Source: a virus (Duplodnaviria > Heunggongvirae > Uroviricota > Caudoviricetes). From it: a stretch of DNA of 64,000 nucleotides. The notes below the pieces were generated by a model that saw only the letters and a list, made by a program, of their open reading frames with translations, made no database searches and was not told where the DNA came from. The stretch lies in IMG/VR virus record IMGVR_UViG_3300045988_162656; one strand, written 5' to 3'. Shown piece after piece: positions 3,152 to 61,376 of this stretch; position 1 is the first letter of the stretch; each line of letters opens with the position of its first letter. Both the position numbers and the translations under genes were made by a program.

Positions 3152-3212
3152 ATGTTTTTCTCTTATCGTTTAGTTATTACATTCTTACACAAATTAAGTA
3201 AGTATTTACCTA

Positions 3213-4898
3213 TCATTTAACGCGTTTGAAAACGTATACGCTGACTGTGATCCCTGTGTCTTCAAACTCGTTGGTAAACGACTTCCCTCTGGCATAAACG
3301 TAATTATCCATCGTCATCCAGTCCAGTATTGGCGCAGTGCCCGGCAATACTGCTACAAGACGCCCGCCGACTTTCAGATGCCCCAGCGCAGCCAGCGTGT
3401 GCTCTCTATGACGACCAAGCGAGTACGGCGGGTTCATAACGATTTTGTCGAACTGATAACCTGCGTTGTCCTCAGACCACTTTATGAAGTCGCAGCAAAT
3501 CGTGTTCGTATACCCTTTTCCACGCAGGATATCAGCGAAGAGAGGTGCGATTTCTATGCAGGTAACATCTTCCAGATCGGCGTTAATATAGGCCAGAAGA
3601 TCCCCACGTCCGGCTTGAGGCTCCAACAGCTTCTCACCAGGCTTCAATTCAGTGGCTCTGGCAACGTACTCAGCAATCAAGCGTGGGGTAGGGTAGAACT
3701 GGTGTGATTTTGTATCCGGTATTAAACCGGTAGCCACAATCGTATTTAGCGTATGGCCGATCTCATACGGGAACTGCCAGTGCTTTTTCTCCTGCACGCC
3801 GCCAATGAAGCTCAGTGTGCGCTCAAGCTCTTCCACCTGCGACTTCTGGAGAGCTGAATCAGAGAAGTACCATACGCCTTTGTCTTTGCTCAATCGCCCG
3901 TCACGAAGCGCAGTGCGAACCGGCACGGAGATCGTCTTCTGGATTAACCCGAACTGCTTTGGTGCCCGTGTTTTTGGCGCAGTTCGGCATGGCGCGGGGA
4001 TTGCAGCAGGCATACTGTAAGCCAGCACCTCATTCAACTTCCAGGCCACGTCAGGATGTATTTCAAAGTGAACGTTGCCGTTCTTGAACATCTTCACGCG
4101 CATCAGATTTCCATCGACGTTCATCCAGTCACCGGTCTGGCAGTCGTTTGCCCGATACGCAGCTGATAGCACCTCAGCAGTGCGGTTGATGGTAATAAAT
4201 TCTTTGTGCGCGAAGAAATGAAGCAAGACACGCAGATCGTCGATGTAGTCCTCTTTGCGATAGTTCACGCTAACGCTGTCACGCCAGAAATCAGAAATGC
4301 AGTCAGCGATTATCAGACGCTCGCTGAAACCGTTTGTCTTATTTGTCTTGTGCGCAGGACTCAGCGCCTTAAACAAGCCATACACGCGCTCAGAGAGATA
4401 TTTGTGCCTGTCATTCAGCAAATTAAGCATCGTTGGTATGACCGTTTCTGCTTTGAACTCCGGTACACCAACGAACTCTTTAACCTTCATCTGATAGCCG
4501 GTTCTGTCAGTTTTGATGACTTCCTGCTTGCCCTCGATAAATAGCTCACGCCACTCGTCGCGACGGGAAGCTGGCATGATCAGCAGAACGTTAGTCATAT
4601 CCGTAACCTTCCTCCAGTACTCGGCCCAAATATTCTGTTTCACCCATTCCAGATCGACGTTATCCAGCCAGACTCGATTCAAACGTGAGCGATCTTCATC
4701 TGGTCGGTGGTTTAGTCGAAGCAGGCGATTAATCATGTTGTGGCGTTCATCGCCATAAACGAAGTCGTGTACCTGATACATGAAGGAGATCTCTTTCTCG
4801 CACTCGGCCACAATTTCGTGGATGACGTTCATTTCCTGTCGATAGTCGATAGCAGTGTTTGAGCTGGCATCGCCCATGATGGAAAGGGCTGTATTCAT
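3213..4898 (-). CDS. putative N6-adenine DNA methyltransferase with large N-terminal domain of unknown function
   Basis: C-terminal third carries LEPQAGRGDL (motif I-like) followed by NPPY (motif IV), the order seen in N6-adenine MTases; N-terminal ~350 aa unrecognised. Confidence 0.6.
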   Translation of the reverse strand: MNTALSIMGDASSNTAIDYRQEMNVIHEIVAECEKEISFMYQVHDFVYGDERHNMINRLLRLNHRPDEDRSRLNRVWLDNVDLEWVKQNIWAEYWRKVTDMTNVLLIMPASRRDEWRELFIEGKQEVIKTDRTGYQMKVKEFVGVPEFKAETVIPTMLNLLNDRHKYLSERVYGLFKALSPAHKTNKTNGFSERLIIADCISDFWRDSVSVNYRKEDYIDDLRVLLHFFAHKEFITINRTAEVLSAAYRANDCQTGDWMNVDGNLMRVKMFKNGNVHFEIHPDVAWKLNEVLAYSMPAAIPAPCRTAPKTRAPKQFGLIQKTISVPVRTALRDGRLSKDKGVWYFSDSALQKSQVEELERTLSFIGGVQEKKHWQFPYEIGHTLNTIVATGLIPDTKSHQFYPTPRLIAEYVARATELKPGEKLLEPQAGRGDLLAYINADLEDVTCIEIAPLFADILRGKGYTNTICCDFIKWSEDNAGYQFDKIVMNPPYSLGRHREHTLAALGHLKVGGRLVAVLPGTAPILDWMTMDNYVYARGKSFTNEFEDTGITVSVYVFKRVK

Positions 4899-5001
4899 AA
4901 TTGCACCATTAAGAAATGATTTGTTTAATGATGCAATTATTTCAAAAATAAAAAGGTGCTAAATAGAAATTAACAGGCAATACTTAAAATAAAGGCATTG
5001 A

Positions 5002-5676
5002 CTAATCATACTTGGATGTATTTATAACCAGGACTTTATTTGTATATAGTTTTTTTACATTCCATGTAACATTACTTGAATACCATTCACCATTATATAT
5101 TTGGTTTCCCGTTGCGCCTGTCATTGTTACGTATACAGGTCTGTCGTAAGGTGTTCGTCTATAGTTATATACTCCAACCATTGCAGGCATTATCGCACAC
5201 GGGTATCCCATATTTATGGTAAATTGAGGATTTGTAATAGTGATAATCTCTGCATCAAGGGGCATCATCTCACCGTGATATACCATTTTACCTGCGCTAT
5301 TATACATGGCAATACCATATCCTGAATGTGGTAACACCATATCAGAAAAAGCATAAACTGTTATCGTTCCGGGGTTTCCTCCAACCTGATTCAGTCTGAG
5401 AACATTATACCCATCTCTAAATTCATGAACGAACATCATATTCGCCTTATTACTGCTTTTTATAAAGAAAAAACATGATTTGTTCGACGGTATTGAAGTC
5501 TTAAAAACAGAACCTTTAGACGTGGACATTGTCCCCCTATTAATCAAATTTTGCGGTGTAAATTCTGGACTCATCCACACATTACCATTTGACTGAGTAA
5601 TTGACATCCCGAACATTATTGTTATCCCCAATATGTATATATATAAGATCCAAGTCCCTTGTATAAATTTGACCAA
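5002..5676 (-). CDS. hypothetical protein in AT-rich island (hydrophobic N-terminal segment)
   Basis: ORF track; region 4900-5950 is visibly AT-richer than its flanks; overlaps ORF 5622..5903 in another frame at a TA-repeat tract. Confidence 0.35.
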   Translation of the reverse strand: MVKFIQGTWILYIYILGITIMFGMSITQSNGNVWMSPEFTPQNLINRGTMSTSKGSVFKTSIPSNKSCFFFIKSSNKANMMFVHEFRDGYNVLRLNQVGGNPGTITVYAFSDMVLPHSGYGIAMYNSAGKMVYHGEMMPLDAEIITITNPQFTINMGYPCAIMPAMVGVYNYRRTPYDRPVYVTMTGATGNQIYNGEWYSSNVTWNVKKLYTNKVLVINTSKYD

Positions 5677-5903
5677 CTTACTGTATTGCCGTTAATAGTG
5701 ATAGTTGGTGTAGGTATATTTACATGGTTATCGTTATTTAAAGGCATCAATGAGCACACAGCATGTAATGATTTGCCAGGTGGTGGATTTGGGTAAGTCT
5801 TAGAGCCTGACGTGGTTGTAAATCGATCAAGAAAAAAAATAGGAGTAAGGAAGCCGGTAACGTTAACTCCCTTATTATTGTAGATCCCTGTACCGTATGC
5901 CAT
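5622..5903 (-). CDS. hypothetical protein in AT-rich island (possibly the N-terminal part of a frameshifted gene)
   Basis: ORF track; overlaps 5002..5676 by ~55 nt at a short TA repeat. Confidence 0.3.
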   Translation of the reverse strand: MAYGTGIYNNKGVNVTGFLTPIFFLDRFTTTSGSKTYPNPPPGKSLHAVCSLMPLNNDNHVNIPTPTITINGNTVSWSNLYKGLGSYIYTYWG

Positions 5904-5957
5904 TTTTCATCCTTGTTTTTATCAACATAATATGGCCGATCATGCGGCCATATCAGA

Positions 5958-8034: not shown

Positions 8035-8181
8035 ATGTGGACTCCATCCAGTGTCATAAAGAGTTGCGGCTGGCAATCGCCAGCCGCCTTTCTCGTTCCA
8101 TCCTGGAACTGTGTCTTACCGACACATTGTCATCCTGACGCCGATAAGATACATGATTTATAATGATAGGTAAACACTTAC

Positions 8182-8775
8182 TTACTGTTTGTTATAAACA
8201 AAACCAATATCTTTCTTGTGAGGCATATCTGCTGCTGAAAAAGCTGCGATCTTCGCGAGTCGATCACATATTTCATTTTCACGATGCCCGGCGTGACCTT
8301 TAACCCACTTCCAGCGAACATTATGTCGACTTGCGGCCTCATCCAGACGCTTCCACAGATCAACATTCTTTACCGGTTTTTTGTCAGAAGTCATCCATCC
8401 ATTGCGTTTCCACCATTTCATCCACTGTGTCATGCCGTTTTTCAGATACTGGCTATCAGAGTGCAAAATAACGTTGCATGGATATTTCAAACGCTCCAGC
8501 CCGATAAGTGCCCCCATCATCTCCATGCGGTTATTGGTGGTGCTATGAAAACCATCTGAGAACTCGCGTTCCTCGCCACGATACTGGAGAACGATACCGT
8601 AACCGCCCGGGCCACCCGGATTTTTAAGGCAAGAGCCATCACTAAAGATTTTCACGGTTTTAAGCTGGGGATTGAACTCTACGACAGGCGTTGTGGGATT
8701 GGTGCGGGGAGAATTTTTGTTTTTGTCTTTTTTGCGAGTTTTTGCTTGCGGTCGGGCTGGTGTCTTCGTTGTCAT
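8182..8775 (-). CDS. rnhA: ribonuclease H
   Basis: RNase HI-like blocks (IFSDGSC...[40 protein letters not shown]); start set at MTTKT with SD GGAG; ORF track 8182..8859 trimmed. Confidence 0.85.
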
Positions 8776-9356
8776 ATAAACTCCTGAATCAAGCGCCGCG
8801 CCGATTTTTCCTCGCGCGTGCGCACACGCGTGCGTGTTAATAATTATTAAAATAAACAAATTACTTCCCAGAACAGGTTTTTATAAACCTGAACTGAACG
8901 AACGAAGTGAGTGAAGTTCACCTCGAACGAAGTGAGAGGTTGTCTTTTCAGGTAATACTCTCCCAGGGAGGTGAGTATAAAATTCCTCACCAACCTGGTC
9001 GTTTCATAACCTGAAAAGCTATGGTCTAAGTCTACTGCCAGCTTAGACTTGGGAAGTTATGGATGACAGCACCCCAGAACCGAGATCTTCCCACACTTTA
9101 TGAAGGGGAGTACTGGATTCAACCTCTCGAAACACCCCAGACTCGACAATCATAAAGTGACCCTTGTCTCCGCTCACTTTGGTTCCCCCTTCCCCGACAC
9201 CTAAACGGCACCGGTTCTACGCTGGTAGTGAGCTTTTTTAAACCTGACGCCAGTGACGCTTACCCCCACCCATCAGGTCGAGTCTCCAGTCTACGACTGG
9301 AAACTATCAGATCTTAGCACTTACAATTCATCTTATGAATAGTTTGTACTTATCTA

Positions 9357-9587
9357 TCATTTCGATTGATTATTTTCTCGACCATGTAGTTGAACATTCA
9401 AGGCAAACACCTCGTTGATCAACTCACCTAAAAGCTGTTCAACAAGTTCGCGATGCTCCCCAAGATGCAAGCACTTAATTGCCCACTCGTACAAGTTGAA
9501 AGCCTGCTCACGATCTTTCATCATTTCACGAGCCTGGGCCAGAAAATCGCTGTCTACGAGCGCAACGACATTAGTCGGGTATGACAT
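9357..9587 (-). CDS. hypothetical protein
   Basis: ORF track 9357..9611 trimmed to ATG preceded by TAAGGAAACCAAC. Confidence 0.45.
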   Translation of the reverse strand: MSYPTNVVALVDSDFLAQAREMMKDREQAFNLYEWAIKCLHLGEHRELVEQLLGELINEVFALNVQLHGRENNQSK

Positions 9588-9774
9588 GTTGGTTTCCTTA
9601 AAGTGGTTCATAAAATCGATTTTAAAGCGTCTGGGAAGGGGGTCTAGTGGATTCTGTAGTGATGTTCAGGTCTGGAGTCTCTGATACAAAACAGCCTGCT
9701 TCCGTATATTAATAATTAATATGTAGTTATTTATATATATACAGAAGCAGGCTAATTACAGACGCCAGAACAAA

Positions 9775-10368: not shown

Positions 10369-10550
10369 CTTCTTTCTCGATAGGTAAGCAAATACCTATT
10401 TTTGCATTTGATTTTATGTATGGCAATCAAATAAAACGCGCCAGAAATGCGAACAAGAAGCTCTCTGGCGCGTTTTTTTGGTGCTGGGTATGGGTTATCT
10501 TACCCAGCACTATAAAGCTCTCTATGGGCTTTATTTTCAGTAGGGGAACG

Positions 10551-15204: not shown

Positions 15205-15275
15205 AAAACCTCACGAAGATAAGTAATCAATTATTTATCACGTGAGTTTACATTCATTGATAAAACAAGACCAGA

Positions 15276-15306: not shown

Positions 15307-15371
15307 AAAGAATAGTCGTTCCAGAGTTTTATACGCAAATCAAATATACATTAGTAGATAATCACCTACAA

Positions 15372-17566: not shown

Positions 17567-19882
17567 TCAGATTTTGCAGGCTCCGTCGCACTCATCTTCT
17601 GGCTCGACGGCTACAGCTTGCGTCAGTGGATTCTGCGGTTCGTCGTCATCACGCTTTCCTGCCCCATCTCTGGTGTTGTGGTAGTAAAGCGTTTTAACTC
17701 CCATCTTGTAGGCGAGAAGCAAATCTGACAGTAGCGTCATCATTGGGACTTTATCGCCTTCAAAGCGAGAAGGGTCATAGTTGGTATTGGCCGAAATAGC
17801 CTGGTCAAAGAACTTCTGGATGATCGCCACCTTTGTCAGATAGCCGCGGTTGTCCGGCATATCCCACAGGTATTCATACTGTTCCTTCAGTTTTTCAATC
17901 TCAGGCACGACCATCTTAACGATGCCGTCCTTAGAAGATTTCACCGACACCGGTCCACGAGGCGGTTCGATGCCGTTTGTGGAATTAGTGATCTGGCTGG
18001 AAGTCTCGCATGGCATTTGTGCCGTCAGTGTGGAGTTGCGAAGACCGTATTTTGCAATACGTTCACGCAGTTCTTCCCACGGCATCTTTAACTCAAAGTT
18101 GGTTTCGCCACTTTCGTCTAATGAAGAACGGTAATGGTCGATCGGCAACTGACCAATTGCGTACTTGGTCTGCTCAAACCAGTCACACTCACCTTTTGCT
18201 TCAGCAAGTTGGCAGCTGGCATCAAGAAGGTAATACTGGATAGCTTCGAACGTTTCATGCACCAGTTTATTACCAGCGGTATCAGAATAACGAATGCCAT
18301 TCTTTGCCAGGTAATAAGCAAAGTTGGTTACACCGATCCCCAGGCTACGACGAGCTTTGGCAGGCACTTCGGCTGCCTCCATCGGATAGTCTTGATAATC
18401 CAGTAACGAATCCAGTGCAGCAACGGCATAGAACGCCACCTCTTTAAGAGACTCCAGTGAACGGATGGCTCCGAGGTTAAAAGCGGATAAAGTGCATAGC
18501 GCGATCTCACCGTTCGGGTCGTCGGTAAATGCCAGTGGACGGGTAGGTAGGGTGATCTCCATACACAGGTTTGACTGGCGGACAGGTGCAAGAGCAGGAA
18601 TGAAAGCGCCATGCTCATTAATATGATCGACGTTCGCAATATAAATTCGGCCCGTGGACGCTCGTTCCTGCATCAGAGATGAGAACAGCTCAATGGCAGG
18701 TACTGACTTCTTGCGAATTGAATCATCGGCTTCGTATTTATGGTACAGCTTTTCAAACAGCTCCTGGTCTGTGAAGAAGGCTTCGTACATATCAGGCACA
18801 TCATGCGGGCTGAACAGAGTGATGTTCTCGCTTCTGACGAGTCGACGGTACATTAGACGGTTACTCATGACGCCGTAATCAAGATGGCGAACGCGGTTTT
18901 CATCAATACCACGGTTATTTTTCACCACCAGCAGACTTTCAACTTCAAGATGCCAGATCGGGTAAAACGCTGTTGCTGCGCCACCACGAACACCACCTTG
19001 CGAACAAGATTTAACAGCCGTCTGGAAATGCTTCAGGAATGGAATAACTCCGGTATGGGTGGCTTCACCATTGCGGATCTCGCTGCCCAGCGCACGGATA
19101 CGGCCAAAACCAATACCAATTCCAGCACGACGTGAAACGTAGTCGATAATTGCGGCTGAAGCTGCACTAATCCCTTTCAGACTATCGCCAGACTCAATCA
19201 GCACACAACTGGAGAACTGACGGGTTGGAGTACGGACGCCGGCCATGATTGGTGTGGGCAGAGACAGTTTGAACGTACTTGTAACGTCATAGAAACCTTT
19301 GACCATCTCCATACGTGTTTTGCCAGCGCAGTCGTCTTCCCAATTCTGGAACAGACACATGCCTACCAGCATATAGATATGTTGCGGCCCCTCATGAATC
19401 TCACCAGTAACACGGTTTTGAACGAGGTATTTGCTTTGCAACTGCACCGTAGCTGCATAGCCAAAAAGATCGTCACGTTTCGGCTTAATGTAATTACCGA
19501 GTTCTTCGATCTCTTCAAACGAATAATGTGTCAGCAAATCCTTGTCATAAACGCCCTTGTTAACGTTCTTGACAATGTGTTGGTAGAAGTTCGGATAGTC
19601 GTAACGACCGAAGGCATCTTTGCGGATTTTAAAAATGTTCAGGCGGGCAGCCACCTGTGAGTAATTTGGTGCTTCTGGTGAGATCAAATCAGCGGCAGAT
19701 TTAACCAAAGCCTCATGCAACTGGCTGGTGGTCATCCCATCAAAAATGCTGGCCGCAGCTCCCATTGCTACAGCGGATGCGCTTACACCACGAATGCCTT
19801 CTACGCCATACATTACGACGCGGTTGTATTTTTCTTCGGATAACGGCTCTGTTTGGCCGTTACGTTTTACGATGCTTATCAT
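17567..19882 (-). CDS. nrdA: ribonucleotide reductase class Ia alpha subunit
   Basis: 771 aa, colinear with E. coli NrdA across the whole length (PTPIMAGVRTPTRQFSSCVLIE, SCSQGGVRGGAAT, NLCMEITLPT, C-terminal CDGACKI). Confidence 0.95.
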   Translation of the reverse strand: MISIVKRNGQTEPLSEEKYNRVVMYGVEGIRGVSASAVAMGAAASIFDGMTTSQLHEALVKSAADLISPEAPNYSQVAARLNIFKIRKDAFGRYDYPNFYQHIVKNVNKGVYDKDLLTHYSFEEIEELGNYIKPKRDDLFGYAATVQLQSKYLVQNRVTGEIHEGPQHIYMLVGMCLFQNWEDDCAGKTRMEMVKGFYDVTSTFKLSLPTPIMAGVRTPTRQFSSCVLIESGDSLKGISAASAAIIDYVSRRAGIGIGFGRIRALGSEIRNGEATHTGVIPFLKHFQTAVKSCSQGGVRGGAATAFYPIWHLEVESLLVVKNNRGIDENRVRHLDYGVMSNRLMYRRLVRSENITLFSPHDVPDMYEAFFTDQELFEKLYHKYEADDSIRKKSVPAIELFSSLMQERASTGRIYIANVDHINEHGAFIPALAPVRQSNLCMEITLPTRPLAFTDDPNGEIALCTLSAFNLGAIRSLESLKEVAFYAVAALDSLLDYQDYPMEAAEVPAKARRSLGIGVTNFAYYLAKNGIRYSDTAGNKLVHETFEAIQYYLLDASCQLAEAKGECDWFEQTKYAIGQLPIDHYRSSLDESGETNFELKMPWEELRERIAKYGLRNSTLTAQMPCETSSQITNSTNGIEPPRGPVSVKSSKDGIVKMVVPEIEKLKEQYEYLWDMPDNRGYLTKVAIIQKFFDQAISANTNYDPSRFEGDKVPMMTLLSDLLLAYKMGVKTLYYHNTRDGAGKRDDDEPQNPLTQAVAVEPEDECDGACKI

Positions 19883-19887
19883 GTATC

Positions 19888-19921
19888 ACCAAATAAAGAG
19901 GGCCACTAAATATAGTGGCCC
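19888..19921 (-). terminator. hairpin with T-tract immediately upstream of nrdA start
   Basis: Stem GGGCCACTA/TAGTGGCCC then TCTTTATTT on minus strand; could be attenuator rather than terminator. Confidence 0.5.
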
Positions 19922-19955
19922 ATGTTAATAGATAAGCACTTACCTATCAATGAAA

Positions 19956-20525
19956 TCAAATGAGAGACTTAAGAACATCGCGCACCTGGCGGAACTGATC
20001 TGTTTGCATACCGGTATGGATGGCAGCCACCGCATCAGCCAAATGTTCGTTTTTGTTCACGAGAACATCCTGTCCAGATTGCTTACGACGCAGCCACGGT
20101 GCTTTAGAGTGTTTTTTCGTAGCCCACTGGATAATCTCTTCTTTCGATGTAGTAAGTTTATTGCCGACAAAATGCTTGATTTCGTTTGGAGTAACCTGGA
20201 TCAATGGCTTATCCACACACGCAAGTACACCGATACAAATACCGTAAGACGTCTGCGAACGAGAGTTTTGGCTCCCAACCGGTAGCTCACAAAAAACCAT
20301 ATTTGCCTTATCAATGATTGGCTTCGCAACACGCCATATTTCACTGGCTCGGCGCAGATCGTCACTGTTCACACGAACGGTCTTTTTGTTACTCCCCGCT
20401 TTAGTCTCAACAAGAGTAAGGTCGTGAATCTCAAGTTCGTCCGTTTCAAGGTCTAAAGTGCCCACAGCAAGCCCAAAGTTGCTCATTGAGGGATCAACAC
20501 CAACTACGCTGATTTTTTTACTCAT
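19956..20525 (-). CDS. putative RuvC-like Holliday junction resolvase
   Basis: N-terminal VVGVDPSMSNFGLAV and C-terminal HLADAVAAIHTG resemble RuvC-fold catalytic motifs; SD AAGGAGA. Confidence 0.55.
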   Translation of the reverse strand: MSKKISVVGVDPSMSNFGLAVGTLDLETDELEIHDLTLVETKAGSNKKTVRVNSDDLRRASEIWRVAKPIIDKANMVFCELPVGSQNSRSQTSYGICIGVLACVDKPLIQVTPNEIKHFVGNKLTTSKEEIIQWATKKHSKAPWLRRKQSGQDVLVNKNEHLADAVAAIHTGMQTDQFRQVRDVLKSLI

Positions 20526-24499: not shown

Positions 24500-24753
24500 G
24501 TGTTTTTCCTTTGTGGTTATTTTGATACAAATTTTAAGAGCAATGAGAAGGTAAACAACTATGCATAACGGTATGTTAGGAATGAAACGAGCGTCTTAAT
24601 ATACAAAATTTATAAGTAAGTATATACCTATTTATTGTGGCGCAACTTTGCTTGTCTGTATGACTAAAAATAAGACAGGATCACTGTAGAACGCTATGAG
24701 AGCTATTTTGAGGAGGCGTAGATTCTATCTACGCCAATATACGATCTGGAGGG

Positions 24754-25439: not shown

Positions 25440-25705
25440 CACCAGGTGCGCCGAAGGTAGTAAATGCCTGTTTTAATTATTCACATATCCACAGGATAGA
25501 TCCTAATAAAGAGATCCATAGATAGATCCTTATATAGATCAAATAAGATCCCCGATCGCTGTAAGCCGCGCCACGACTGGTCTGAAGTCATGTTCATGTA
25601 TGCTGTCAGCGGTAATTGATAGTCTGTCAGCGGTTCACCGTATGCTGCCAACTGTTTTTGGTATTCTGTCAGCGGCAAATCAAGTATGCTGTCAGCGGTT
25701 GAATG
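25440..25705. promoter_or_regulatory. plasmid-type replication origin: DnaA-box-like site, GATC cluster and upstream iterons
   Basis: ATATCCACA (one mismatch to TTATCCACA) near 25485; five or six GATC within ~70 bp (25490-25560); about 5 copies/partials of TATGCTGTCAGCGGT at 25598-25700. Confidence 0.6.
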
Positions 25706-25719
25706 ACAAAGGTGTCCAC

Positions 25720-26814: not shown

Positions 26815-26931
26815 TATGCTGTCAGCGGTGAAATGTATGCTATCAGCGGCTATTTTTCTGAAAAGTATGCTGTGAACGGTTAAAGATATGCTACCAGCGG
26901 TATAGTGAGATGAACGTATGCTGTGAGCGGT
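26814..26931. repeat. iteron array (5 copies) downstream of repA
   Basis: (G/A)TATGCT(G/A)(T/C)(C/G)A(G/A)CGG(T/C) at ~26814, 26835, 26865, 26886, 26916; spacing alternates 21/30 bp. Confidence 0.8.
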
Positions 26932-27090
26932 AAATCATCTATCACCACTCAATGCTCTGTCATACCTCCCCAGTGGTTACTAACCTCGAAGAGTGCATTC
27001 CATATAGGTTTGCGCTCACTAACATTCTATTGCTATTGCGCTGATTGCTTGTAGTGAAAGGCATTTATTGCCTGCTACTCCCTGATAGAA

Positions 27091-27346
27091 CGTATGCTGT
27101 CAGCGGTGTTTTATTGAGGAATTTTTGTTTGGATATGCTATCAGCGGTAATTAATGGCATATGTCAGACATTCGTATGCTGCCAGCGGTAATTTTGTTCT
27201 GGTTATACCCATACCGGTACACATTATTCATGCAATGTCTTAAGTATGCTGTCAGCGGTAAAAAATCGAGTAAAGTATGCTGTGAGCGGTGAGATAGACT
27301 CTCGATATGCTATCAGCGGTAGTTGATTGTGTATGCTGTCAGCGGT
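27091..27346. repeat. second iteron array (about 7 copies), incA-like
   Basis: Same 16-bp repeat at ~27091, 27132, 27174, 27244, 27275, 27305, 27331. Confidence 0.8.
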
Positions 27347-27393
27347 GACGACTATGAAATATGACTGCGGAACGTGCCGCAGTCAGTTTGCAT

Positions 27394-27941: not shown

Positions 27942-28156
27942 GCTGCCACCTCTTTGATTACATCAAATGCTGAATTAAATACGAGCACGATAGCCAAAGC
28001 GTTTATGACTACGTCGTGCACCGGGGAAAAGACTTTACGAATGACACCAGTGAAAATGCAGTCGATGACAAAAGCTATTGAAACGATGAGTAACAAGTAT
28101 TCAATAAAAATCTTCATGATAGGTAGATACTAACTTATATAAACTTTACTGTAAAC

Positions 28157-28913: not shown

Positions 28914-28974
28914 GTTTACTTCTCCTTATAAATAGGAAAATAATCACCTTTGAAAAAATAAAGCAAAGATATAT

Positions 28975-32129: not shown

Positions 32130-32185
32130 GTTTTCCTATGTGGTTGTTATGCGAAAATAATAAGTAAGTACTTATATATTTTCAA
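32130..32185 (-). promoter_or_regulatory. candidate sigma70 promoter overlapping a dyad motif
   Basis: Minus strand TTGAAA - 17 bp (ATATATAAGTACTTACT) - TATTAT, then conserved initiation region. Confidence 0.4.
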
Positions 32186-35595: not shown

Positions 35596-35712
35596 GTGTT
35601 TCTCCTTGTTGTGATTTGGCCGATGGCGCTATGCGCGTTGGGCTTTCGTTCATTCGTGGCTCTTTCGAGCTGTTAAATGATAGATCAGTACTTACTTATT
35701 ATCTATCAAAAA

Positions 35713-41204: not shown

Positions 41205-41299
41205 GCGTTTTTCCTTTGTTCTCTAATGAGCGTTCAACTTCTTATATAAATATACCATTAACTATCGTAAGTGGTTACTTATCATTAAGGCTGTTTTAT

Positions 41300-43408
41300 T
41301 CACTTCAAAATGATACGAGATAGTTCAGTAACTACAGATGAACCAAGACTATCAACGCTCGTTACCAGGGCATGATTTGAGTAAAATCTCTCCGGTGCGT
41401 CAGTCATGATGCCAATTGCCATCAAATCAATGTCAGTCTGCGTTTCAATTTGCTTCGCAACCGAACGCAAATGAGCGTCAAAATCTCTCCCAACAGCCCA
41501 CGGCGCGCCATCGCTCAGAACAAGCATGATCTTCCTGTCCTCCAAGCGACCGGAAAATAACGATGCAAGGCTGGCTATGCTTTCACCATCCACGTTATTA
41601 AGAAGTGGGAATGTGTAGCCTACGCACCCCATACGTGAGCGAACTTCGCGAGAATTTACCTTTTCATTCCAATTTTTGATGATAGGTAGCATTAAAGATT
41701 CAAAGCGAGAGAACTCATACTTGACAGCCTTAAGTTCTCCTGCCGCCATATGACTACCAAATGTAGTGAAGCCGGTGATAATGTTGGGAACATTTATTCG
41801 ATCAAGAGCATCGGCGATGGTATATGCACTTGCAAGAGCCAATTGTATCGTTATACCACTCATTGAACCTGATAAATCAATAACTTGTTGAACACAGGCG
41901 TTAACGGCTTTAGATTCTTCTTTTTTACGAAACACGCGATCATCATTCATTGCTAATCTGTAGATACTAGAACCATGAATGCGCCCCCGACGCTGGCCCG
42001 GTATAAACTGAACTCTGTTTCTGCTTGCTATTGCTCGCTCCAGGTCTTTTGCCAGCGTCGACGAAACACCTGACGAAAGATGCTTTTCAATATATTTGTC
42101 GAAGAGCTGGTTGCCTTCAGGAACGATGCGATAGCGGCTGATTGGATATCCTCCTAAATCAATATCGGAGAATGTTTTAATAAGCCGTTTGATATGGGCT
42201 TCTGCCTGATCAATCGAGCCGATGAAGTCGTATGAGCGATTGTATGGCCTGTATTCGCTTTTCGAGCTTTCTGTTAACTCGCTTTTAATCGTTTCGGATA
42301 GAGCATCTTCTGTCATGCCTCCGACTTCATCTTCTATGCTATCCAGCTCCTCTAAAGCCTCTTCCAGACTTATTTTTGACGGAGTTGGAATATCTGAAGA
42401 GCCGTCTTCTGTCGTTTTTCTTTTTTCGTGGTCAGCGGTTAATGATTCTGACGCCGCGTTATCAGAAGCATCAGAATCTGATACCTCTTTATCATTTTCT
42501 GTATCATCGAATATTGTTTCTGATGATTCAGAATTATCTGAATCATCACTGTCGTTAATATCATGTTTGTGCTTACTGTGTGATTCAGATTTGATAGATT
42601 TGTGGCTATCTAACGCTTCGGGTGTCTCATGATCTCCGTTGTCTTCATTGTTTTCTCCAGAGGCATCCGTCTGGTCAGCGTCTGAAGGATCGGGTGTTTT
42701 TCCCGGAGCTGACTCCTTACCTTTGCTTTCACTTTCAGTGTCTTTGAGGATCTTAGCTATGGTCGCAGCCACCTTTACACAATCCTCGGTGCAGGACATG
42801 TTACGCACGGCCACATCGATACCATGTTCTTTTAATAATGAAATTGGTTTCTCAATGACAGGCCAGTATTCATCCATGAAATCTACGAACGGTGCTTGGC
42901 CATCCCAGGCTCTTACAACCGGACAGAGAAAGAAGTTTAGAAAAAGCGCGCGCTGATCTTTGCCACAATAAGCAATAGCCTCTGAAGCCTTTGGTTTAAA
43001 GACTTTTTCGATTATAAGGCGCTGAGTTGCCATCAGATTACGTCTCGTTCCGTTAAAGACCTGCCCCATTTTTCGCTCGATGAACACGTCTTCTAATGCA
43101 TTCCATAGTGACCGGGAAGGAACGCGTCCTTTTTCTCTCATTTTGTTGGACACACGAATATCGGTAAACAAAATGTGAGCAACCTCATGATCGAGAAATC
43201 CGCGCACAGCATTCATCAATGCCGGTGTTGCGTTATCCGGAATTGATGGGATGTTTACGAGAATTGGCTCTCCATCATCGTTATAGCGTACATAAGCGTC
43301 GTCTCCTCGTTCTGCAACAGGGATGTTTTTACCTGAAAGGAGAGCGACTACTCGTTTTACACTGTCACGGAAGTCCTGAACCTCTTTGATGGAACGTTTT
43401 TTAGACAT
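41300..43408 (-). CDS. von Willebrand factor A domain protein (CobT-like) with acidic Ser/Asp-rich central region
   Basis: MIDAS motif DLSGSMSG in C-terminal region; adjacent to AAA+ ATPase. Confidence 0.65.
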   Translation of the reverse strand: MSKKRSIKEVQDFRDSVKRVVALLSGKNIPVAERGDDAYVRYNDDGEPILVNIPSIPDNATPALMNAVRGFLDHEVAHILFTDIRVSNKMREKGRVPSRSLWNALEDVFIERKMGQVFNGTRRNLMATQRLIIEKVFKPKASEAIAYCGKDQRALFLNFFLCPVVRAWDGQAPFVDFMDEYWPVIEKPISLLKEHGIDVAVRNMSCTEDCVKVAATIAKILKDTESESKGKESAPGKTPDPSDADQTDASGENNEDNGDHETPEALDSHKSIKSESHSKHKHDINDSDDSDNSESSETIFDDTENDKEVSDSDASDNAASESLTADHEKRKTTEDGSSDIPTPSKISLEEALEELDSIEDEVGGMTEDALSETIKSELTESSKSEYRPYNRSYDFIGSIDQAEAHIKRLIKTFSDIDLGGYPISRYRIVPEGNQLFDKYIEKHLSSGVSSTLAKDLERAIASRNRVQFIPGQRRGRIHGSSIYRLAMNDDRVFRKKEESKAVNACVQQVIDLSGSMSGITIQLALASAYTIADALDRINVPNIITGFTTFGSHMAAGELKAVKYEFSRFESLMLPIIKNWNEKVNSREVRSRMGCVGYTFPLLNNVDGESIASLASLFSGRLEDRKIMLVLSDGAPWAVGRDFDAHLRSVAKQIETQTDIDLMAIGIMTDAPERFYSNHALVTSVDSLGSSVVTELSRIILK

Positions 43409-43508
43409 GGCTAATCCTTTGTTATGAAAACAAATTATTTACTAGTGTGTTTAATGTAGCACTGCGCGAACAGGGAACTAAGCCATTCGCGCAGGTAGCA
43501 GAGAGGGG

Positions 43509-43721
43509 TTAACAGGTTCTGACGGCTAAAGAGCCAGAGCCGGTATTGATAAGCGTGAAGCGTTTGTTATTAAGTAGGAATATAAAGGCTGTTGCGTCAT
43601 GCATACCAACCTGAATCTGCTCATTTGGTAATTCGGTGAGAATGTCAGCTACACATTCATCAGCTAATTTTTCAACGTGTCCGATCTCAAGAGTGATTAG
43701 GCTGGAAATAGTTGTTTTCAT
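43509..43721 (-). CDS. hypothetical protein
   Basis: ORF track; weak SD. Confidence 0.35.
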   Translation of the reverse strand: MKTTISSLITLEIGHVEKLADECVADILTELPNEQIQVGMHDATAFIFLLNNKRFTLINTGSGSLAVRTC

Positions 43722-43968
43722 TCAATCAATCCATTCTAACTTAAAGTATGGTAGGGAGTACTATTAAATCTTATATCATAATTGAACTTATCTATATCAT
43801 ATCTGAGTTAGTTTTGTTACATGTTATTAGTCGTTTTTCTCCATTAATGAATGCTGATTGGTTAATATTTGTGCCTGTAGAAAAAATGATTATATCTTTA
43901 CAACCCTAACCTTTGATGTAATATCGGTAAGCACTTACCAGAGAGTTTAACGCGCAAAGGTCGCAATA

Positions 43969-44355
43969 ATGTCTGACAAAAACATTGAATTTATAGAAAG
44001 TCGCTATGCTGCTTTTATCGCAGGGCTGATTGAATCCTCACCTATGAGTCAGGCCCAAATAGCCAGACTTATTGGTTATAAAAATGCCAACAACCTTTCT
44101 TTAATTAAAAGTGGTAAAATTCCTTTGCCTATCGATAAGGTTCGTCCGCTGGCGTTGGCGCTGGGTATTGAGCCAAGTCGTCTTATGATGATGGTGCTGG
44201 AAGAACGCCAACCTGAACTCGCAGCATTTTTATACAAAGAAGGCACCGCTCCTCTTAACGAGGACGAAAAACAGGTTCTTGCTGCATATAACGAGCGATT
44301 CGGTAAAGAGAAAGGCGCATCACAAAAGGTTGTTGAGGCCATAAAGTCTCTATGA
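43969..44355 (+). CDS. helix-turn-helix DNA-binding protein
   Basis: HTH-like segment SQAQIARLIGYKNANNLSLIKSGK; perfect palindrome GGTAAGCACTTACC ~30 bp upstream of the start. Confidence 0.6.
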   Translation: MSDKNIEFIESRYAAFIAGLIESSPMSQAQIARLIGYKNANNLSLIKSGKIPLPIDKVRPLALALGIEPSRLMMMVLEERQPELAAFLYKEGTAPLNEDEKQVLAAYNERFGKEKGASQKVVEAIKSL

Positions 44356-47799: not shown

Positions 47800-47886
47800 T
47801 GGCGGAGAGTAATGGAATCGAACCATCATCGCTTGCGCAATGGGACGGTTTTCAAGACCGCTTGAGCACCATGCTCCCTACTCTCC
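47800..47886 (-). tRNA. tRNA-Ser (anticodon UGA), type II
   Basis: Hand-folded: acceptor GGAGAGT/ACTCTCC, anticodon arm GCGGT-CTTGAAA-ACCGT, long variable arm, T-loop TTCGATT, encoded CCA; D-arm atypical. Confidence 0.7.
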
Positions 47887-48110
47887 GGCCGTTGTGGTGG
47901 CCGGTACTGAATCTCCGGCATACGGTGCAGCCAATTAGGACTACGGACGATCACCGCTCGCGAAAGGGAAGATTTGCGGCCGCATTTCCCTAACATCCAA
48001 GAAAGCTATCGCATTAGTCTGCGAATCCACCACAACGGTAAGATCACTACCTTTCGACCAGTCATTGTGCACATGAACGACGATTAACCGTAATGATCTT
48101 ATCGTTGTAT

Positions 48111-48186
48111 TGGTGCCGGTTAGCGGACTCGAACCGCTGACATCCTGCTTACAAGGCAGGCGCTCTACCAACTGAGCTAAACCGGC
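48111..48186 (-). tRNA. tRNA-Thr (anticodon UGU)
   Basis: Hand-folded cloverleaf: acceptor GCCGGTT/AACCGGC, D-arm GCTC-AGTTGGTA-GAGC, anticodon loop CTTGTAA, T-loop TTCGAGT, CCA. Confidence 0.85.
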
Positions 48187-48190
48187 AATT

Positions 48191-48277
48191 TGGTGGGGAG
48201 TGATGGAGTCGAACCACCCGAGTTGCAATGACAGTAGATTTACAGTCTACCCAGCTGCCCCTACGGACTAACTCCCC
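48191..48277 (-). tRNA. tRNA-Tyr (anticodon GUA), type II
   Basis: Acceptor GGGGAGT/ACTCCCC, anticodon arm GTAGA-CTGTAAA-TCTAC, long variable arm, T-loop TTCGACT, CCA. Confidence 0.8.
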
Positions 48278-48282
48278 TAAAT

Positions 48283-48357
48283 TGGCGATGGTGGGTGGAT
48301 TCGAACCACCGACCAGTTGGTTAACAGCCAACTGCTCTACCGCTGAGCTACACCATC
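48283..48357 (-). tRNA. tRNA-Asn (anticodon GUU)
   Basis: Acceptor GATGGTG/CACCATC, D-arm GCTC-AGCGGTA-GAGC, anticodon arm GTTGG-CTGTTAA-CCAAC, T-loop TTCGAAT, CCA. Confidence 0.85.
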
Positions 48358-49117
48358 AATTCAGCACTGCCAGTATTTATTACTCAACAGTGCCAATCGC
48401 GGCGGTGTTAGTTTCTGCCAGGAAACGCACCGCTACTTGCACTTTTTCGTTAGTGTCAGACGCTTTCGACTTCTCTCAATAGAAGGCAAAATCTTTAAGT
48501 AGATGATGTTTCTGAGGACAGCACCTACTTTGTAATTTATACAATGTGATGTATGGAATCATTTGTTGTGGAAAAGTGGTTAAACCTACACAACAATCCT
48601 GTCTTCACAACGTTGAGGCCACTACTCCGATTGAATGTTTGCCCAACATGTTACATATCAACGCTCGCCGGTATCTCTGTGAATAGAACCTTAGAATTGA
48701 TAAAAATGTAATGGCCTCAACGTTGTGTGCTGGCTAACCATACCAGCCGGGCTACGTCGCCGCTTTTTAACCCAGTATAAACGACATAATTGAACAAAAT
48801 GACGTAACAGAATGGGCGGTCAGTGGCTAAGAATCCGGGAGTCATATGGAGTTGAAAATATACCGACCGCCCATTCTGTTACTTCATCGGAGGGAACATG
48901 AGTGTTCCCTCCTGCGTTCTGCAATCACACTCGCTCAGTGTGTCCCATTTCGGTAACGAGGCTGGAAACTGACCTCGCTGGTGTTTGGCTTATTAGGCTA
49001 CTGCCAGATAGACTTCTTCGTTTGCACTTGTATTTAAGTTCAAACAGTCGCATCTCAACGAAAACAAAGTCATCTTATACACAAAGGATAAGTAAGTAAA
49101 TACTTATCGATATGTTT

Positions 49118-51567: not shown

Positions 51568-51622
51568 AAATAATCTTGTACTTACCTATCGTTATTTGCG
51601 TAAAAAACGACGCGCGGAGAGA

Positions 51623-52399: not shown

Positions 52400-52474
52400 A
52401 CCAACTCCTAGCTAACAGATGAAAGTATTCTCACAGAAAGATAAGTAATCATCTACTTATTTTAAAGGTGATTG

Positions 52475-55862: not shown

Positions 55863-56136
55863 GTGGCTCACCTGGTAGGTAGTTACTTACTTATCACAAT
55901 GGACGGATGATAGCGACTGGTGTCAGTTTTTGGAAGTGAAAACGGAAGGGAGTTGTTCTGGTGGTGTCTTTTAAAAGACCTGCTTCCGTATATATTTAAT
56001 AAGTTACTTATTATTTATATACAGAAACAGGCTCCTAATGGATACCAAGAACAACATAATTTGACTCCAACTCCAGATGCTATGTCATTGACAGATTTAT
56101 CAAGGGAGATCATGTTAGAATTAGTGTTTTAGCCTC

Positions 56137-58456: not shown

Positions 58457-58460
58457 GGAA

Positions 58461-60041: not shown

Positions 60042-60213
60042 TTTTGACATCCACTGTGCTTTGAAGTCGTTTCCTGTCTTCCTGTTTTGCCTTCTCTTCC
60101 ATTGCTCGTCGCGCCGCATTTCCGCCCATCGTGTAAGCGCCGACAAGAACGAAAAGTACGGCAGCCAGCGTAATCAAAGCAACTTTTAGCTTTGTCATCA
60201 GGCTGCCTAGCAT
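59962..60213 (-). CDS. Rz-like inner-membrane spanin
   Basis: N-terminal TM helix then charged coiled coil; SD AAAGGGATGG; overlapped by Rz1-like frame. Confidence 0.55.
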   Translation of the reverse strand: MLGSLMTKLKVALITLAAVLFVLVGAYTMGGNAARRAMEEKAKQEDRKRLQSTVDVKNETLDELRRKDASTVHHELHNKWLRD

Positions 60214-60214
60214 A

Positions 60215-60907
60215 TTAGACCATCCCTTTCTGGTGTTTTCTTACCTGCGACCAGGCAATGAATCCTGCCACAACAATAGTGGCAATACCGAAGATGATGC
60301 GTACTGTATCCCCACTAGAGATATGACCTTGTGCTTTATCCATAGCAGCGGAAACCTGCGGCATAACATCGGCCAGCTGCGCCAGACCAATACCTGCTGT
60401 AACAGTTGCGCCTGCTGTTTCTTTAGTTACAGGAACAGCCTTCACGGTTTTCACCGGCTTAACGACGCCAGCTCGACGCAGACCTTCCTCAATAACTTCT
60501 GCCGCATACCAGGTGTTCAGCGTTTTTAGCGGACCTCGCCCATTCTCATGGCGAATGATTGCCTCAACCAAAGGTCGAAGAATGTCGTAATCATGCAGAT
60601 CGATAATCATGTCTGCGGTCACACCAACGGCTTTAGACACCTCATTAATGTAGGCGTCAGTGTTGTTTTCATTCGGCGGTGCCCAACGTTCAATAACTTC
60701 ACGAATGGTATCGATACTTGAGCCGTCTTTTGCGCGACGTTTGTCGTGGTAGGTAATTAGAGTCACCGCCAGCGCACGAATCCCCCAAACAGGGTCTTTA
60801 AACGTACAAAAGCGCGGTTCGTCTGGATTCGCAACCAGACCTTGCCACGGTGATCCTTTATCAAGATTACCGGGGTTATTATTACGAATGCCTCTCGGAG
60901 TCTTCAT
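60215..60907 (-). CDS. putative cell-wall hydrolase (endolysin candidate) with C-terminal membrane anchor
   Basis: Sits directly upstream of the Rz/Rz1 pair; N-terminal GIRNNNPGNL block; C-terminal hydrophobic helix IIFGIATIVVAGFIAW; function inferred from context only. Confidence 0.4.
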   Translation of the reverse strand: MKTPRGIRNNNPGNLDKGSPWQGLVANPDEPRFCTFKDPVWGIRALAVTLITYHDKRRAKDGSSIDTIREVIERWAPPNENNTDAYINEVSKAVGVTADMIIDLHDYDILRPLVEAIIRHENGRGPLKTLNTWYAAEVIEEGLRRAGVVKPVKTVKAVPVTKETAGATVTAGIGLAQLADVMPQVSAAMDKAQGHISSGDTVRIIFGIATIVVAGFIAWSQVRKHQKGMV

Positions 60908-60920
60908 CCTCAATCTCCTG

Positions 60921-61244
60921 TTATTGCAGTCCATTTTTTACGCCATACGCGGCTAACCCCAAAAGCAGTGCGGTAATAATGAACGACGTTATTTTAGAAA
61001 CAATGCCGCCAAAGAACCCACTGGAGATGGAATCTAACCGGTTAAGGAGTTTGTCAAGGTTGGAGTGTTGAATACTATGTTGCGCCGGGGTCATATCACC
61101 AAAGTAGGTTTTCAGCTGATCATTGACCTCCTGGCCAATTTCTTCACGTATCTCTTTACCTAATTTGCCAACAACCTCCCTAGCAACGATCGCGGCAATA
61201 CGCTCAACATGCTCTGTTGTAACGCCCGCCATCTCGTTCGACAT
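60921..61244 (-). CDS. small membrane protein (holin or lysis-regulator candidate)
   Basis: C-terminal TM helix; SD GGAGGAAAC; start set at MSNEM; ORF track 60921..61265 trimmed. Confidence 0.4.
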   Translation of the reverse strand: MSNEMAGVTTEHVERIAAIVAREVVGKLGKEIREEIGQEVNDQLKTYFGDMTPAQHSIQHSNLDKLLNRLDSISSGFFGGIVSKITSFIITALLLGLAAYGVKNGLQ

Positions 61245-61376
61245 GTTTCCTCCGTGAAAAGTCAAATCGGGATGGCGTGTTTATATCATATTTTAACCAT
61301 TTGTAGTAGGTGTGTACCTACCTAGCATATATCTTGCAAACTAATCGTTGTTAATAATGCAGATATAATCTGCCCC

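Follow-up and report, generated by a model that had tools for sequence, protein, structure and literature searches.

Dispersed palindromic dyads as probable operators of a global repressor in an SSU5-family phage-plasmid of Escherichia coli

Introduction

We analyzed a 64,000-nucleotide stretch of viral DNA (IMG/VR record IMGVR_UViG_3300045988_162656; hereafter the window) in which an inverted repeat, or dyad, recurs between genes. These dyads are probably operators for a dimeric repressor encoded by the element itself, most likely a 128-amino-acid helix-turn-helix (HTH) protein, which would silence nearly the whole of a 109-kb phage-plasmid. About 30 dyads per genome lie on or beside predicted host sigma-70 promoters, one ahead of most transcription units; the units behind them cover replication, recombination, nucleotide metabolism, tRNA and lysis and, outside the window, the virion genes.

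The window shares 99.9% identity with Escherichia phage CMS-2020a (CP054387.1, 109 kb, circular). Its close relatives are phage Cyrano (pLF82; ~96% identity) and PhiR41_1, and Salmonella phage SSU5 and Klebsiella phage-plasmids are more distant. Given this identity and kinship, the window is, on sequence grounds, part of an SSU5-family phage-plasmid of E. coli; our starting guess, that it was P1 and that the sites were Lpa late promoters, was dropped because the window is SSU5-like. Nearly all genes in the window are on the minus strand. Comparison with the Cyrano annotation places replication, recombination, nucleotide metabolism, tRNA, immunity, partition and lysis regions here, and the virion genes in the other 45 kb of the genome; counts given below for the complete genome cover the window plus this remaining 45 kb (~109 kb). 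Cyrano has a plasmid copy number of ~5.5 per cell and is induced 39-fold by ciprofloxacin (PMC9928086), and SSU5-related phage-plasmids are reported to be frequent carriers of genes for antibiotic resistance (PMC9600943).

Results

One palindromic motif of fixed geometry recurs in intergenic gaps

The half-site GATARGTA occurs 16 times against 2.4 expected, a count reached in none of 100 shuffles. An exact search for GATARGTA-N(4-8)-TACYTATC yields a single match, at 49087, and this pattern was replaced by mismatch counting and by a symmetrized 30-column position weight matrix (PWM). Mismatch counting reveals a single geometry across the sites, with a spacer of 6 that is itself palindromic; the variable N(4-8) spacing in the original prediction does not hold. 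Apparent spacers of 2 and 10 were discarded as re-readings of the same sites, which arise because the motif has an internal periodicity, with a TA step every 4 bp. The consensus, aTGATARGTAAGTACTTACYTATCAt, consists of a 22-bp pseudo-palindrome, GATARGTAAGTACTTACYTATC, that extends to ~26 bp (aTGATA...TATCAt). The PWM finds 27 matches at 12 bits or more (0.5 expected), and in the complete genome there are 28 sites at 16 bits or more, compared to 0.0 in Markov simulations, so the motif is indeed commoner than composition predicts. Two PWM matches, at 9714 and 55998, were excluded as members of a distinct family of longer palindromes.

About 18 strong sites lie within the window, and 16 of these 18 fall in the 8% of it that is not covered by open reading frames (ORFs; P = 4e-16). 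The strong non-coding sites occupy gaps between co-directional genes, usually 0-30 nt past the upstream stop codon and 1-176 nt ahead of the next start codon. The dyad is also found between virion genes, in the remaining 45 kb of the genome and in SSU5, Cyrano, Klebsiella and Yersinia pestis pMT. Of the 19 positions originally listed, 16 prove to be full dyads, with scores of 16-29 bits; at 36176 there is a single half-site without a partner arm, 58399 is marginal (13.4 bits), and 43926, discussed below, is not a full dyad. Sites at 15349 and 28931, and weaker ones at 28445 and 42593, were absent from that list.

The consensus would give a 9-11 bp stem, and the sites lie between co-directional genes, often just past stop codons and sometimes beside terminators, as might be expected of a hairpin, either an RNA stem-loop involved in processing, stabilization or anti-termination or a DNA cruciform. 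In 65 distinct 26-mers from four genomes, however, we saw no covariation between the arms: arm-to-arm complementarity is 8.32 of 13 pairs, compared to 8.32 +/- 0.13 for independent arms (p = 0.48). Mismatches in the arms include 81 G:T and 59 A:C, without significant strand bias. Typical sites are AT-rich with 3-5 mismatches, and the association with promoters described below is strand-specific despite the symmetry of the dyad. The site is thus two-fold symmetric with each half-site constrained independently; given that the arms vary independently, each fitting the consensus alone, the pattern points to a dimeric protein on duplex DNA, and a hairpin is very improbable. A strict LexA box pattern has no match within the window, and an Rfam search gave none at the dyads.

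Dyads lie over or beside core elements of predicted host-type promoters

Because the dyad is symmetric, its two flanks act as an internal control for strand-specific signals. A -10 element with TGn at +7 to +10 nt after the dyad is present on the transcribed strand at 14 of 68 sites and on the other strand at 2 of 68. Likewise, with a sigma-70 score of at least 9 as the cut-off (combining the -35, a spacer of 15-19, the -10 and a TG bonus), 23 of 68 sites have a promoter match nearby on the transcribed strand, and 4 of 68 have one on the opposite strand. An independent promoter scanner recovers the same promoters; its rule counts 5 of 18 dyads as overlapping a full minus-strand promoter, compared to 0.31 for random and 1.45 for random-intergenic placement. 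Between 27.9 and 36.3 kb, four of the five minus-strand promoter-like matches coincide with dyads, and ~12 of the 18 window dyads coincide with promoter elements.

The position of the dyad relative to the promoter varies, with the -10 starting at -14, -4, +1, +7, +10, +15, +18 to +24, or +31 from the dyad center. A single fixed architecture, with the dyad at -31 and an extended -10, was tried and fits only ~20% of the sites. We distinguish four arrangements, each of them kept in the orthologous gaps of SSU5 and Klebsiella while spacers and leaders diverge. Placement that is variable over core promoter elements, yet conserved among orthologs, is the behavior of an operator. In what follows, bit scores are those of the symmetrized PWM, dyads are unstranded, and promoter elements are on the minus strand unless stated.

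In the first arrangement, the dyad lies downstream of the promoter, over the start site. The dyad at 10379..10400 (25.8 bits) is just downstream of TTGCCA-17-AAAAAT, extending over the predicted start site and the leader to 10 nt short of the start codon of an adenine-methyltransferase-like gene; hexamers and dyad are kept across 4-5 genomes and the spacer diverges. In the second, the dyad covers the -10: the one at 28118..28139 (26.6 bits) lies over the -10 and start site of TTTACA-17-TAGTAT (promoter match 28155-28127) and abuts the start codon, an arrangement kept in SSU5. In the third, the dyad fills the 17-bp spacer and supplies the -10. At 32159..32180 (25.8 bits), spacer and -10 of TTGAAA-17-TATTAT are filled in this way (promoter match 32185-32157, 10/12 matches; kept in SSU5), immediately after an intrinsic terminator at 32215-32195. 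The dyad at 19927..19948 (27.9 bits) fills the spacer of TTGATA-17-TAACAT upstream of nrdA, with a terminator-like hairpin next; the rule-based match spans 19922-19950 and the arrangement is kept in SSU5 and Klebsiella. The dyad at 35679..35700 (26.4 bits) lies within TAGATA-17-TATCAT (match 35705-35677), upstream of a gp32-like SSB gene.

In the fourth arrangement, the dyad lies over the -35 position, before an extended -10 or as part of TTTAC(C/T)-17. The dyad at 3193..3214 (29.2 bits), directly past the stop codon of a DUF4942/methylase-like gene, is upstream of the extended -10 TGtAAGAAT; dyad and TGTArGAAT are kept in Cyrano, SSU5 and Klebsiella and the leader downstream diverges. At 24611..24632 (29.1 bits), the dyad precedes the extended -10-like TGTATATT, ahead of an SbcD-like gene, and at 52440..52461 (23.1 bits) it is upstream of TGtGAGAAT, which in the orthologs reads TGtAAGAAT or TGtAATAAT at equal distance from the dyad. 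A weak dyad at 41262..41283 (16.3 bits), between cobT-like and cobS-like genes, lies upstream of the extended -10 TGgTATATT. The dyad at 49087..49108 (28.5 bits), the best in the window with 2 mismatches to the 22-bp consensus, contains a -35-like TTTACT 17 bp from TAAGAT and lies upstream of the tRNA cluster. Finally, the dyad at 8165..8186 (28.5 bits) carries the -35-like TTTACC within its arm, 17 bp from TATCTT, and TTTACC-17-TATCTT is kept in SSU5 and Klebsiella.

Between this last dyad and the next gene lies a non-coding stretch of ~110 nt (8055-8165, minus strand), also kept in SSU5 and Klebsiella, which is predicted to fold into three hairpins, the last of them terminator-like (minimum free energy -45.4 kcal/mol, z = -5.7). 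It has no match in Rfam and, from its predicted fold, could be a structured leader, an attenuator or a small RNA. On the opposite strand, a conserved promoter-like CTGACG-18-TATAAT at 8135-8164 is directed into the 8165 dyad.

Other sites are weaker or have less clear promoters. The weaker dyad at 9337..9358 (23.2 bits) has one degenerate arm and an uncertain promoter assignment. At 15218..15239 (21.9 bits), upstream of a ThyX-like gene, the promoter is not clear in the window; in the SSU5 ortholog, CTGACA-17-TAATAT overlaps the dyad. A degenerate dyad at 15349..15370 (19.2 bits) is overlapped by TTGTAG-17-TATATT, and a borderline one lies at 28931..28952 (17.0 bits). The dyad at 51569..51590 (19.2 bits) ends 1-2 nt ahead of a start codon and has no recognizable promoter; the one at 55874..55895 (22.7 bits), downstream of the ParA operon, ends 11 nt ahead of a start codon, over the ribosome-binding region. 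A degenerate dyad at 61305..61326 (18.3 bits) is upstream of the holin/lysis genes, and its orthologs in SSU5 (27473, TGTAGGTAAGCGCTTACCTACA) and Cyrano (26656) are better palindromes. Judging from their positions, the promoterless dyads and those in the virion operon may act as roadblocks.

These arrangements also bear on whether the dyad could be a positive element, bound in place of the -35 contact by a phage activator or by a factor that redirects host sigma, in the manner of T4 MotA boxes or P1 Lpa late promoters. The extended -10 elements at +7 to +10 nt, which have no canonical -35 and strongly prefer the forward strand, would fit such a factor; genes downstream are silent in lysogens, and the sites persist in SSU5, which lacks the HTH gene. 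Moreover, Acinetobacter relatives encode a sigma-70-like protein that is divergent between motif lineages. But an activator site or special promoter class needs fixed geometry, a poor fit to dyads whose distance to the -10 runs from -14 to +31. Dyads also fill the 17-bp spacer and -10 of promoters with a good -35 (TTGAAA, TTGATA), and others lie over the start site (TTGCCA-17-AAAAAT) or abut start codons, from where activation is impossible. No conserved candidate activator is evident, and no sigma-like homolog was found in the enteric genomes. We therefore regard a positive element as rather improbable. The same points count against the phage-specific promoter class raised in the original prediction. 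The other possibility it raised, operators of a global repressor, is the reading we favor, given host-type promoter matches at ortholog-conserved positions and genes that are silent in the lysogen of a 96%-identical relative.

The sigma-70-family gene of the Acinetobacter relatives lies between cobS-like and dnaE genes (34899-35564 and 19397-20080 in the respective plasmids). The copy in lineage 1 (lineages are defined below) is an unannotated, 27%-identical homolog, and identity between the lineages is 28%. A tblastn search of the enteric genomes found no counterpart, and the window has no gene at that position.

Genes behind dyads are silent in a closely related lysogen

We compared the sites with a per-gene expression table for Cyrano covering the lysogen in LB and growth in macrophages; the lysogen background median is 9.8 normalized reads. 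In the LB lysogen, genes behind dyads are at background. The genes that are expressed are toxin-antitoxin pairs, the ParA operon, RepA, a few accessory genes and the HTH gene, CYRAN_45 (95.8, ten-fold over background). CYRAN_81, the ortholog downstream of the weaker 9337 dyad, is also expressed in the lysogen. Expression falls ~9-fold between CYRAN_30 (54.6) and CYRAN_31 (6.2), across the interval with the ortholog of the 55874 dyad, and 5-fold between CYRAN_34 (43.7) and CYRAN_35 (8.8), across the ortholog of the 51569 dyad. The first of these intervals (in its window equivalent) also contains a long palindrome, at 55979-56031.

In macrophages, expression rises exactly at a dyad, with the gene upstream low, in three places: from CYRAN_55 to 56/57, from 59 to 60-62 and from 11 to 12/13. 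CYRAN_60-62, downstream of the 28118 ortholog, go from log2 2.3 to 8-9 while the upstream gene stays near 5; CYRAN_56/57, downstream of the 32159 ortholog, are induced and the upstream gene is not. A comparison by hand of operator score with macrophage induction in Cyrano showed no clear trend and was not used. Taken together, the expression evidence from Cyrano is supportive but mixed.

The region around the CYRAN_81 ortholog (~8990-9340), downstream of the 9337 dyad, is largely ORF-free. The tiny CYRAN_81 ORF is 12-fold over background in the lysogen and is further induced in macrophages; this locus may be a non-coding RNA instead of a protein gene.

The motif is conserved in enteric relatives and replaced by variants in Acinetobacter

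Motif density is 18-28 per 100 kb, against 0.0-0.1 in simulated sequence, in SSU5, Cyrano, Klebsiella pJN2-26, the divergent Klebsiella hvKP859 and Y. pestis pMT. Two phage-plasmid lineages of Acinetobacter baumannii, alike in gene order, each have a version of the motif of their own, dispersed likewise: ~25-34 copies of ATCAGTCAGTACTGACTGAT / aATCAGTCAGTACTGACTGATt, found de novo, in lineage 1, and ~30 copies of TTAGTAAGCGCTTACTAA / ATTATTAGTAAGCGCTTACTAATAAT in lineage 2. Counting dyads with exact half-sites worked well for Acinetobacter and missed the degenerate enteric motif. Enteric lineages and Acinetobacter lineage 2 share the core half-site AGTAAG; lineage 1 has AGTCAG instead. A search with the lineage 1 matrix gives no sites in the lineage 2 plasmid and hardly any in the window, so these specificities are distinct; the enteric matrix cross-detects lineage 2 sites because the AGTAAG core is common to both.

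The presence of two specificities within one host species argues against reading by a host protein. Intergenic position, AT-richness, an abundance of TA steps and location at junctions between gene modules would suit a nucleoid-associated protein, a host regulator or a recombination hotspot at module boundaries. Yet the A. baumannii lineages carry mutually exclusive variants, and Yersinia, Klebsiella and E. coli share one variant despite their host differences; the conserved position relative to promoter hexamers points to transcription. We give such explanations very little credence.

An HTH protein in the immunity region is the best candidate reader

Given the operator and repressor model, we think it likely that the reader is the HTH protein encoded at 43969..44355 (plus strand), the gene already singled out in the original prediction. 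This 128-amino-acid protein of XRE/Cro-CI type is the ortholog of CYRAN_45, annotated as 'putative repressor'. Its gene is divergent from the lytic genes and convergent with an integrase gene, whose end it overlaps. The protein matches PHROG 8 ('transcriptional regulator', E = 7e-12) and, in Pfam, HTH_19 and HTH_37 at scores under the gathering thresholds; a sequence search of the PDB gave no match. Its AlphaFold model has an N-terminal five-helix Cro/CI-XRE fold (pLDDT 86-90 over residues 10-80). The best structural matches include P22 c2-operator complexes, 434 repressor and restriction-modification controller (C-) proteins, with weak E values of 0.01-0.1 and target TM scores of 0.7-0.8, and the model superposes on the P22 c2-operator complexes at 1.4 Å over 60 residues. 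The C-terminus is helical and the protein has no S24 match; without an S24 self-cleavage domain, induction must differ from the lambda CI type.

Just outside the window, CYRAN_98 (Cyrano 39311-39700) encodes a stand-alone 'LexA-like S24 peptidase' that stands at 148 in the lysogen, compared to the background of 9.8, and is further induced in macrophages. This peptidase might connect DNA damage with induction in an element whose repressor itself has no cleavage domain.

Several observations single out this gene. Among the DNA-binding candidates of the window it is the sole one clearly expressed in the lysogen; when all candidates are counted, only the S24-peptidase-like gene outside the window joins it. 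Two ParB-like genes (CYRAN_119, 5.0; CYRAN_120, 9.5), small regulators and a terminase-associated DNA-binding protein are at lysogen background. Homologs of the HTH protein occur in 961 plasmid records, which include Y. pestis pMT (confirmed), pHCM2-size Salmonella plasmids and many Klebsiella plasmids, and, in those listed records that carry annotation, an integrase gene is always adjacent.

The promoter of the HTH gene is predicted at 43897..43924 (plus strand) as TTTACA-16-TAATAT, which is the sole promoter-like match in 43400-44100 and is also present in Y. pestis pMT. The perfect dyad reported upstream of the HTH gene is present in part: there is a perfect 14-bp core palindrome, GGTAAGCACTTACC (43925..43938, read from the sequence), over the predicted start site of the gene, and its outer arms are absent. 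Because this palindrome directly follows the promoter, a bound protein would cover the start site, and we propose that it is a low-affinity operator variant serving as an autoregulatory site. It is kept as GGTAAGTACTTACCGATA in Klebsiella pJN2-26 and as CAGTAAGCACTTACC in pMT. In hvKP859 and both Acinetobacter lineages, too, the HTH gene has copies of the motif upstream, in the version fitting the lineage, so that motif variants lie over or before the HTH promoter in 6 of 6 lineages examined that carry the gene.

The protein also diverges with the motif. Between Acinetobacter lineages 1 and 2, the HTH proteins are 30% identical, compared to 55-75% for backbone proteins, both ParB-like proteins included, and 98% for the adjacent integrase; judged by these identities, this pattern is typical of an immunity determinant. 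In enteric lineages with the shared motif, the recognition helix-turn-helix hardly changes, even in a protein of only 39% overall identity; in Acinetobacter it is different. At the entry to the recognition helix stands Asn or Gln if the half-site carries A, and Arg if it carries C:G. Lysogen expression, motif variants at its own promoter, divergence together with the motif and absence from the free phage SSU5 make the HTH protein the best candidate.

The same sites and the same repression could also be served by another reader encoded by the element, with the HTH protein acting on other operators; we consider this unlikely. Candidates are a 70-amino-acid, Cro-like protein from the ORF at 43509-43721, a CYRAN_114-type regulator, or a ParB/KorB-like silencer. 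That 25 strong sites persist in SSU5, which has no HTH gene, would fit this, and the atypical site at the HTH promoter could serve a lytic regulator in turning off the repressor gene. The 70-amino-acid gene is unrelated between the two Acinetobacter lineages, whose motifs also differ, and its Cyrano ortholog is induced ~90-fold in macrophages, but the protein has no detectable DNA-binding domain, and a lytic protein made only after induction could not occupy sites in lysogeny. Two ParB-like genes are kept in all lineages; yet they are at lysogen background and themselves behind a dyad, and their divergence between lineages with different motifs is at backbone level (56-65%). CYRAN_114 is expressed at just ~2x background.

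On its lytic side, the immunity region begins with the 70-amino-acid ORF (43509-43721, minus strand; PHROG 2627, unknown function). In macrophages its ortholog, CYRAN_46, shows the ~90-fold rise and the next gene barely changes. We see it as a candidate Cro-like protein or anti-repressor.

Other features of the element

The original prediction tied the dyads to two large ORF-free regions, and both regions have other explanations. At 26813-27351, ~11 iterons (consensus TATGCTGTCAGCGGT) in two clusters lie beside the ORF of a Rep3-family initiator (25600-26814, plus strand); by its sequence organization, this iteron region is the plasmid replication origin, which accounts for one of them. The other is accounted for by four tRNA genes, Ser-TGA, Thr-TGT, Tyr-GTA and Asn-GTT, at 47800-48357 (minus strand), downstream of the 49087 dyad.

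The second repeat family, to which the excluded PWM matches belong, is a 55-60 bp AT-rich palindrome with GC-rich arm clamps (CCTGCTTCCGTATA...TATACAGAAGCAGG), followed by a short T-run. In the window it is found at 9693-9753 and 55979-56031; it also occurs in the remaining 45 kb of the genome, in SSU5 (~33472, 78318), in Cyrano (~31174, 78098) and in Klebsiella (15284, 38547, 74857). One of these palindromes separates the lysogen-expressed ParA operon from silent lytic genes. From its sequence, the family looks like a long hairpin or a bidirectional terminator.

Near the lysis genes, 61417-61615 (minus strand) is a full-length Rfam match to IS009 (RF02111, 225 bits), in or overlapping a 193-amino-acid ORF at 61377-61958. 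The RecA/UvsX-like gene at 32220-33293 (minus strand) encodes 357 amino acids in the window, compared to 779 in Cyrano CYRAN_55, a length difference that suggests an intein or other insertion in the Cyrano copy.

Discussion

We propose the following mechanism. In the plasmid state, the repressor would occupy the dyads and block RNA polymerase at the -35 position, at the spacer and -10, or at the start site, depending on the promoter; the minority of dyads without promoters may serve as roadblocks. The outcome would be near-total silence of the 109-kb element except for its maintenance genes. The weaker, core-only operator over the HTH start site would provide negative autoregulation, and loss or inactivation of the repressor would free all promoters together. 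In Cyrano, DNA damage triggers induction.

Several observations weigh against this repressor model. At the HTH promoter, the site is missing the outer arms, where the PWM is most informative (5.1 bits), and a Klebsiella HTH protein of only 39% identity goes with the same motif. The correlation between residue and base rests on one evolutionary switch in the sequences compared and is only suggestive. SSU5, which was isolated as a free phage, lacks the whole HTH-integrase module and retains 25 high-scoring sites; the module may have been lost recently, or else a second reader uses the sites or they contribute to promoters in their own right. Six of the 18 strong window dyads have no recognizable promoter, and the promoters as a whole are, at the level of sequence, consensus matches of a kind that AT-rich intergenic DNA often contains. 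Dyads of the virion operon are often found between the stop codon and the terminator hairpin, an order the model does not explain; nor does it account for two conserved sites that fall within genes or for the 4-bp periodicity of TA steps. Finally, expression at dyads in macrophages changes in either direction and at low read counts, and some dyads show no rise, or a fall.

A bolder form of the repressor model is possible, and we hold it only tentatively. Here a single small XRE-type repressor would gate essentially every promoter, virion and lysis promoters included, through ~30 copies of one long palindromic operator and with no dedicated late activator. Timing and lysogen leakiness would be set by the strength and position of operators, promoterless roadblocks among them, and operator sequence would define heteroimmunity groups (SSU5, pHCM2, pMT1, pKpn, Acinetobacter 'AB'). 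In a stronger version, the dyad arm would also supply a -35-like TTTAC(C/T) once the repressor leaves, which would explain why the sites are kept in SSU5.

The comparison with P1 C1-type control, drawn in the original prediction, holds as an analogy: both are ~100-kb plasmid prophages with dispersed operators, and P1 autoregulates its repressor gene through operators at its own promoter, as we propose here. The analogy breaks down for the operator, the reader and the arrangement of the late genes. C1 is a larger protein, unrelated to the 128-amino-acid XRE-type HTH, and the virion and late genes of P1 depend on the Lpa activator and a separate class of late promoters. In the element studied here, by contrast, the same dyad runs throughout the virion operon, and no second late-promoter motif turned up, though no search was aimed at one; the candidate reader is not of the C1 family, although no whole-genome search for a C1 homolog was made; and we identified no counterparts of Coi, Lxc or c4. 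The 22 operators of C1 are dispersed over the P1 genome, compared to 28 sites of at least 16 bits here, and they are asymmetric 17-mers, ATTGCTCTAATAAATTT (PMC8546580), unrelated in sequence to the symmetric 22-26 bp palindrome.

Cluster A mycobacteriophages offer a second parallel. Their repressor acts at 20-30 operators or stoperators, and among heteroimmune relatives the consensus of these sites changes together with the repressor (PMC6550527). Just as in L5 and Bxb1, 20-30 sites lie in short intergenic gaps of early and late operons, some are true promoter operators, and the motif co-varies with the repressor, with three variants here and the HTH protein as the divergence outlier. In contrast, the L5 sites, 13 bp long and asymmetric, follow the direction of transcription, and most lie off promoters and block elongation; here the sites are palindromic with statistically equivalent arms, about two thirds coincide with promoter elements, and the few putative pure roadblocks (e.g. 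51569, 55874) compare to a majority in L5.

With lambdoid Cro/CI proteins such as 434 and P22 c2, the candidate shares the modeled five-helix HTH fold, two-fold symmetric operators overlapping promoters, and a repressor gene that is divergent from the lytic genes and has an operator at its own promoter. It differs in that lambdoid phages have about six cooperative operators clustered at two loci, whereas ~30 single sites are spread here over 109 kb; the operator is 22-26 bp with a 4-bp TA-step periodicity instead of 14-18 bp; and, unlike the lambda CI/LexA subtype, the HTH protein has no C-terminal S24 peptidase domain. KorB, a ParB-family protein of IncP plasmids, has a palindromic operator that occurs about a dozen times at varying distances from promoters and silences many operons. 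In contrast to KorB, the ParB-like genes of this element are not expressed above background in the lysogen, nor have they diverged unusually far between lineages with different motifs, and the motif is unrelated to the 13-bp KorB operator. The system is thus a member of neither the P1 C1 nor the Cluster A stoperator family, and prophage repression through dispersed operators is as such already known. In the searchable literature, we found no description of how the plasmid/lytic switch of SSU5-type elements is controlled, of SSU5 or pHCM2 operators, or of the motif sequence.

SSU5-related phage-plasmids are common in clinical Enterobacteriaceae and Acinetobacter. If our reading is right, it would provide a full list of regulated promoters and a candidate master repressor for these elements, and it would account for the silence of 100 kb of lytic genes at about five copies per cell. 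It would allow mutual immunity to be predicted from sequence, with three operator specificities so far. The switch between lysis and lysogeny would become testable, and the model suggests ways to induce or cure the plasmids.

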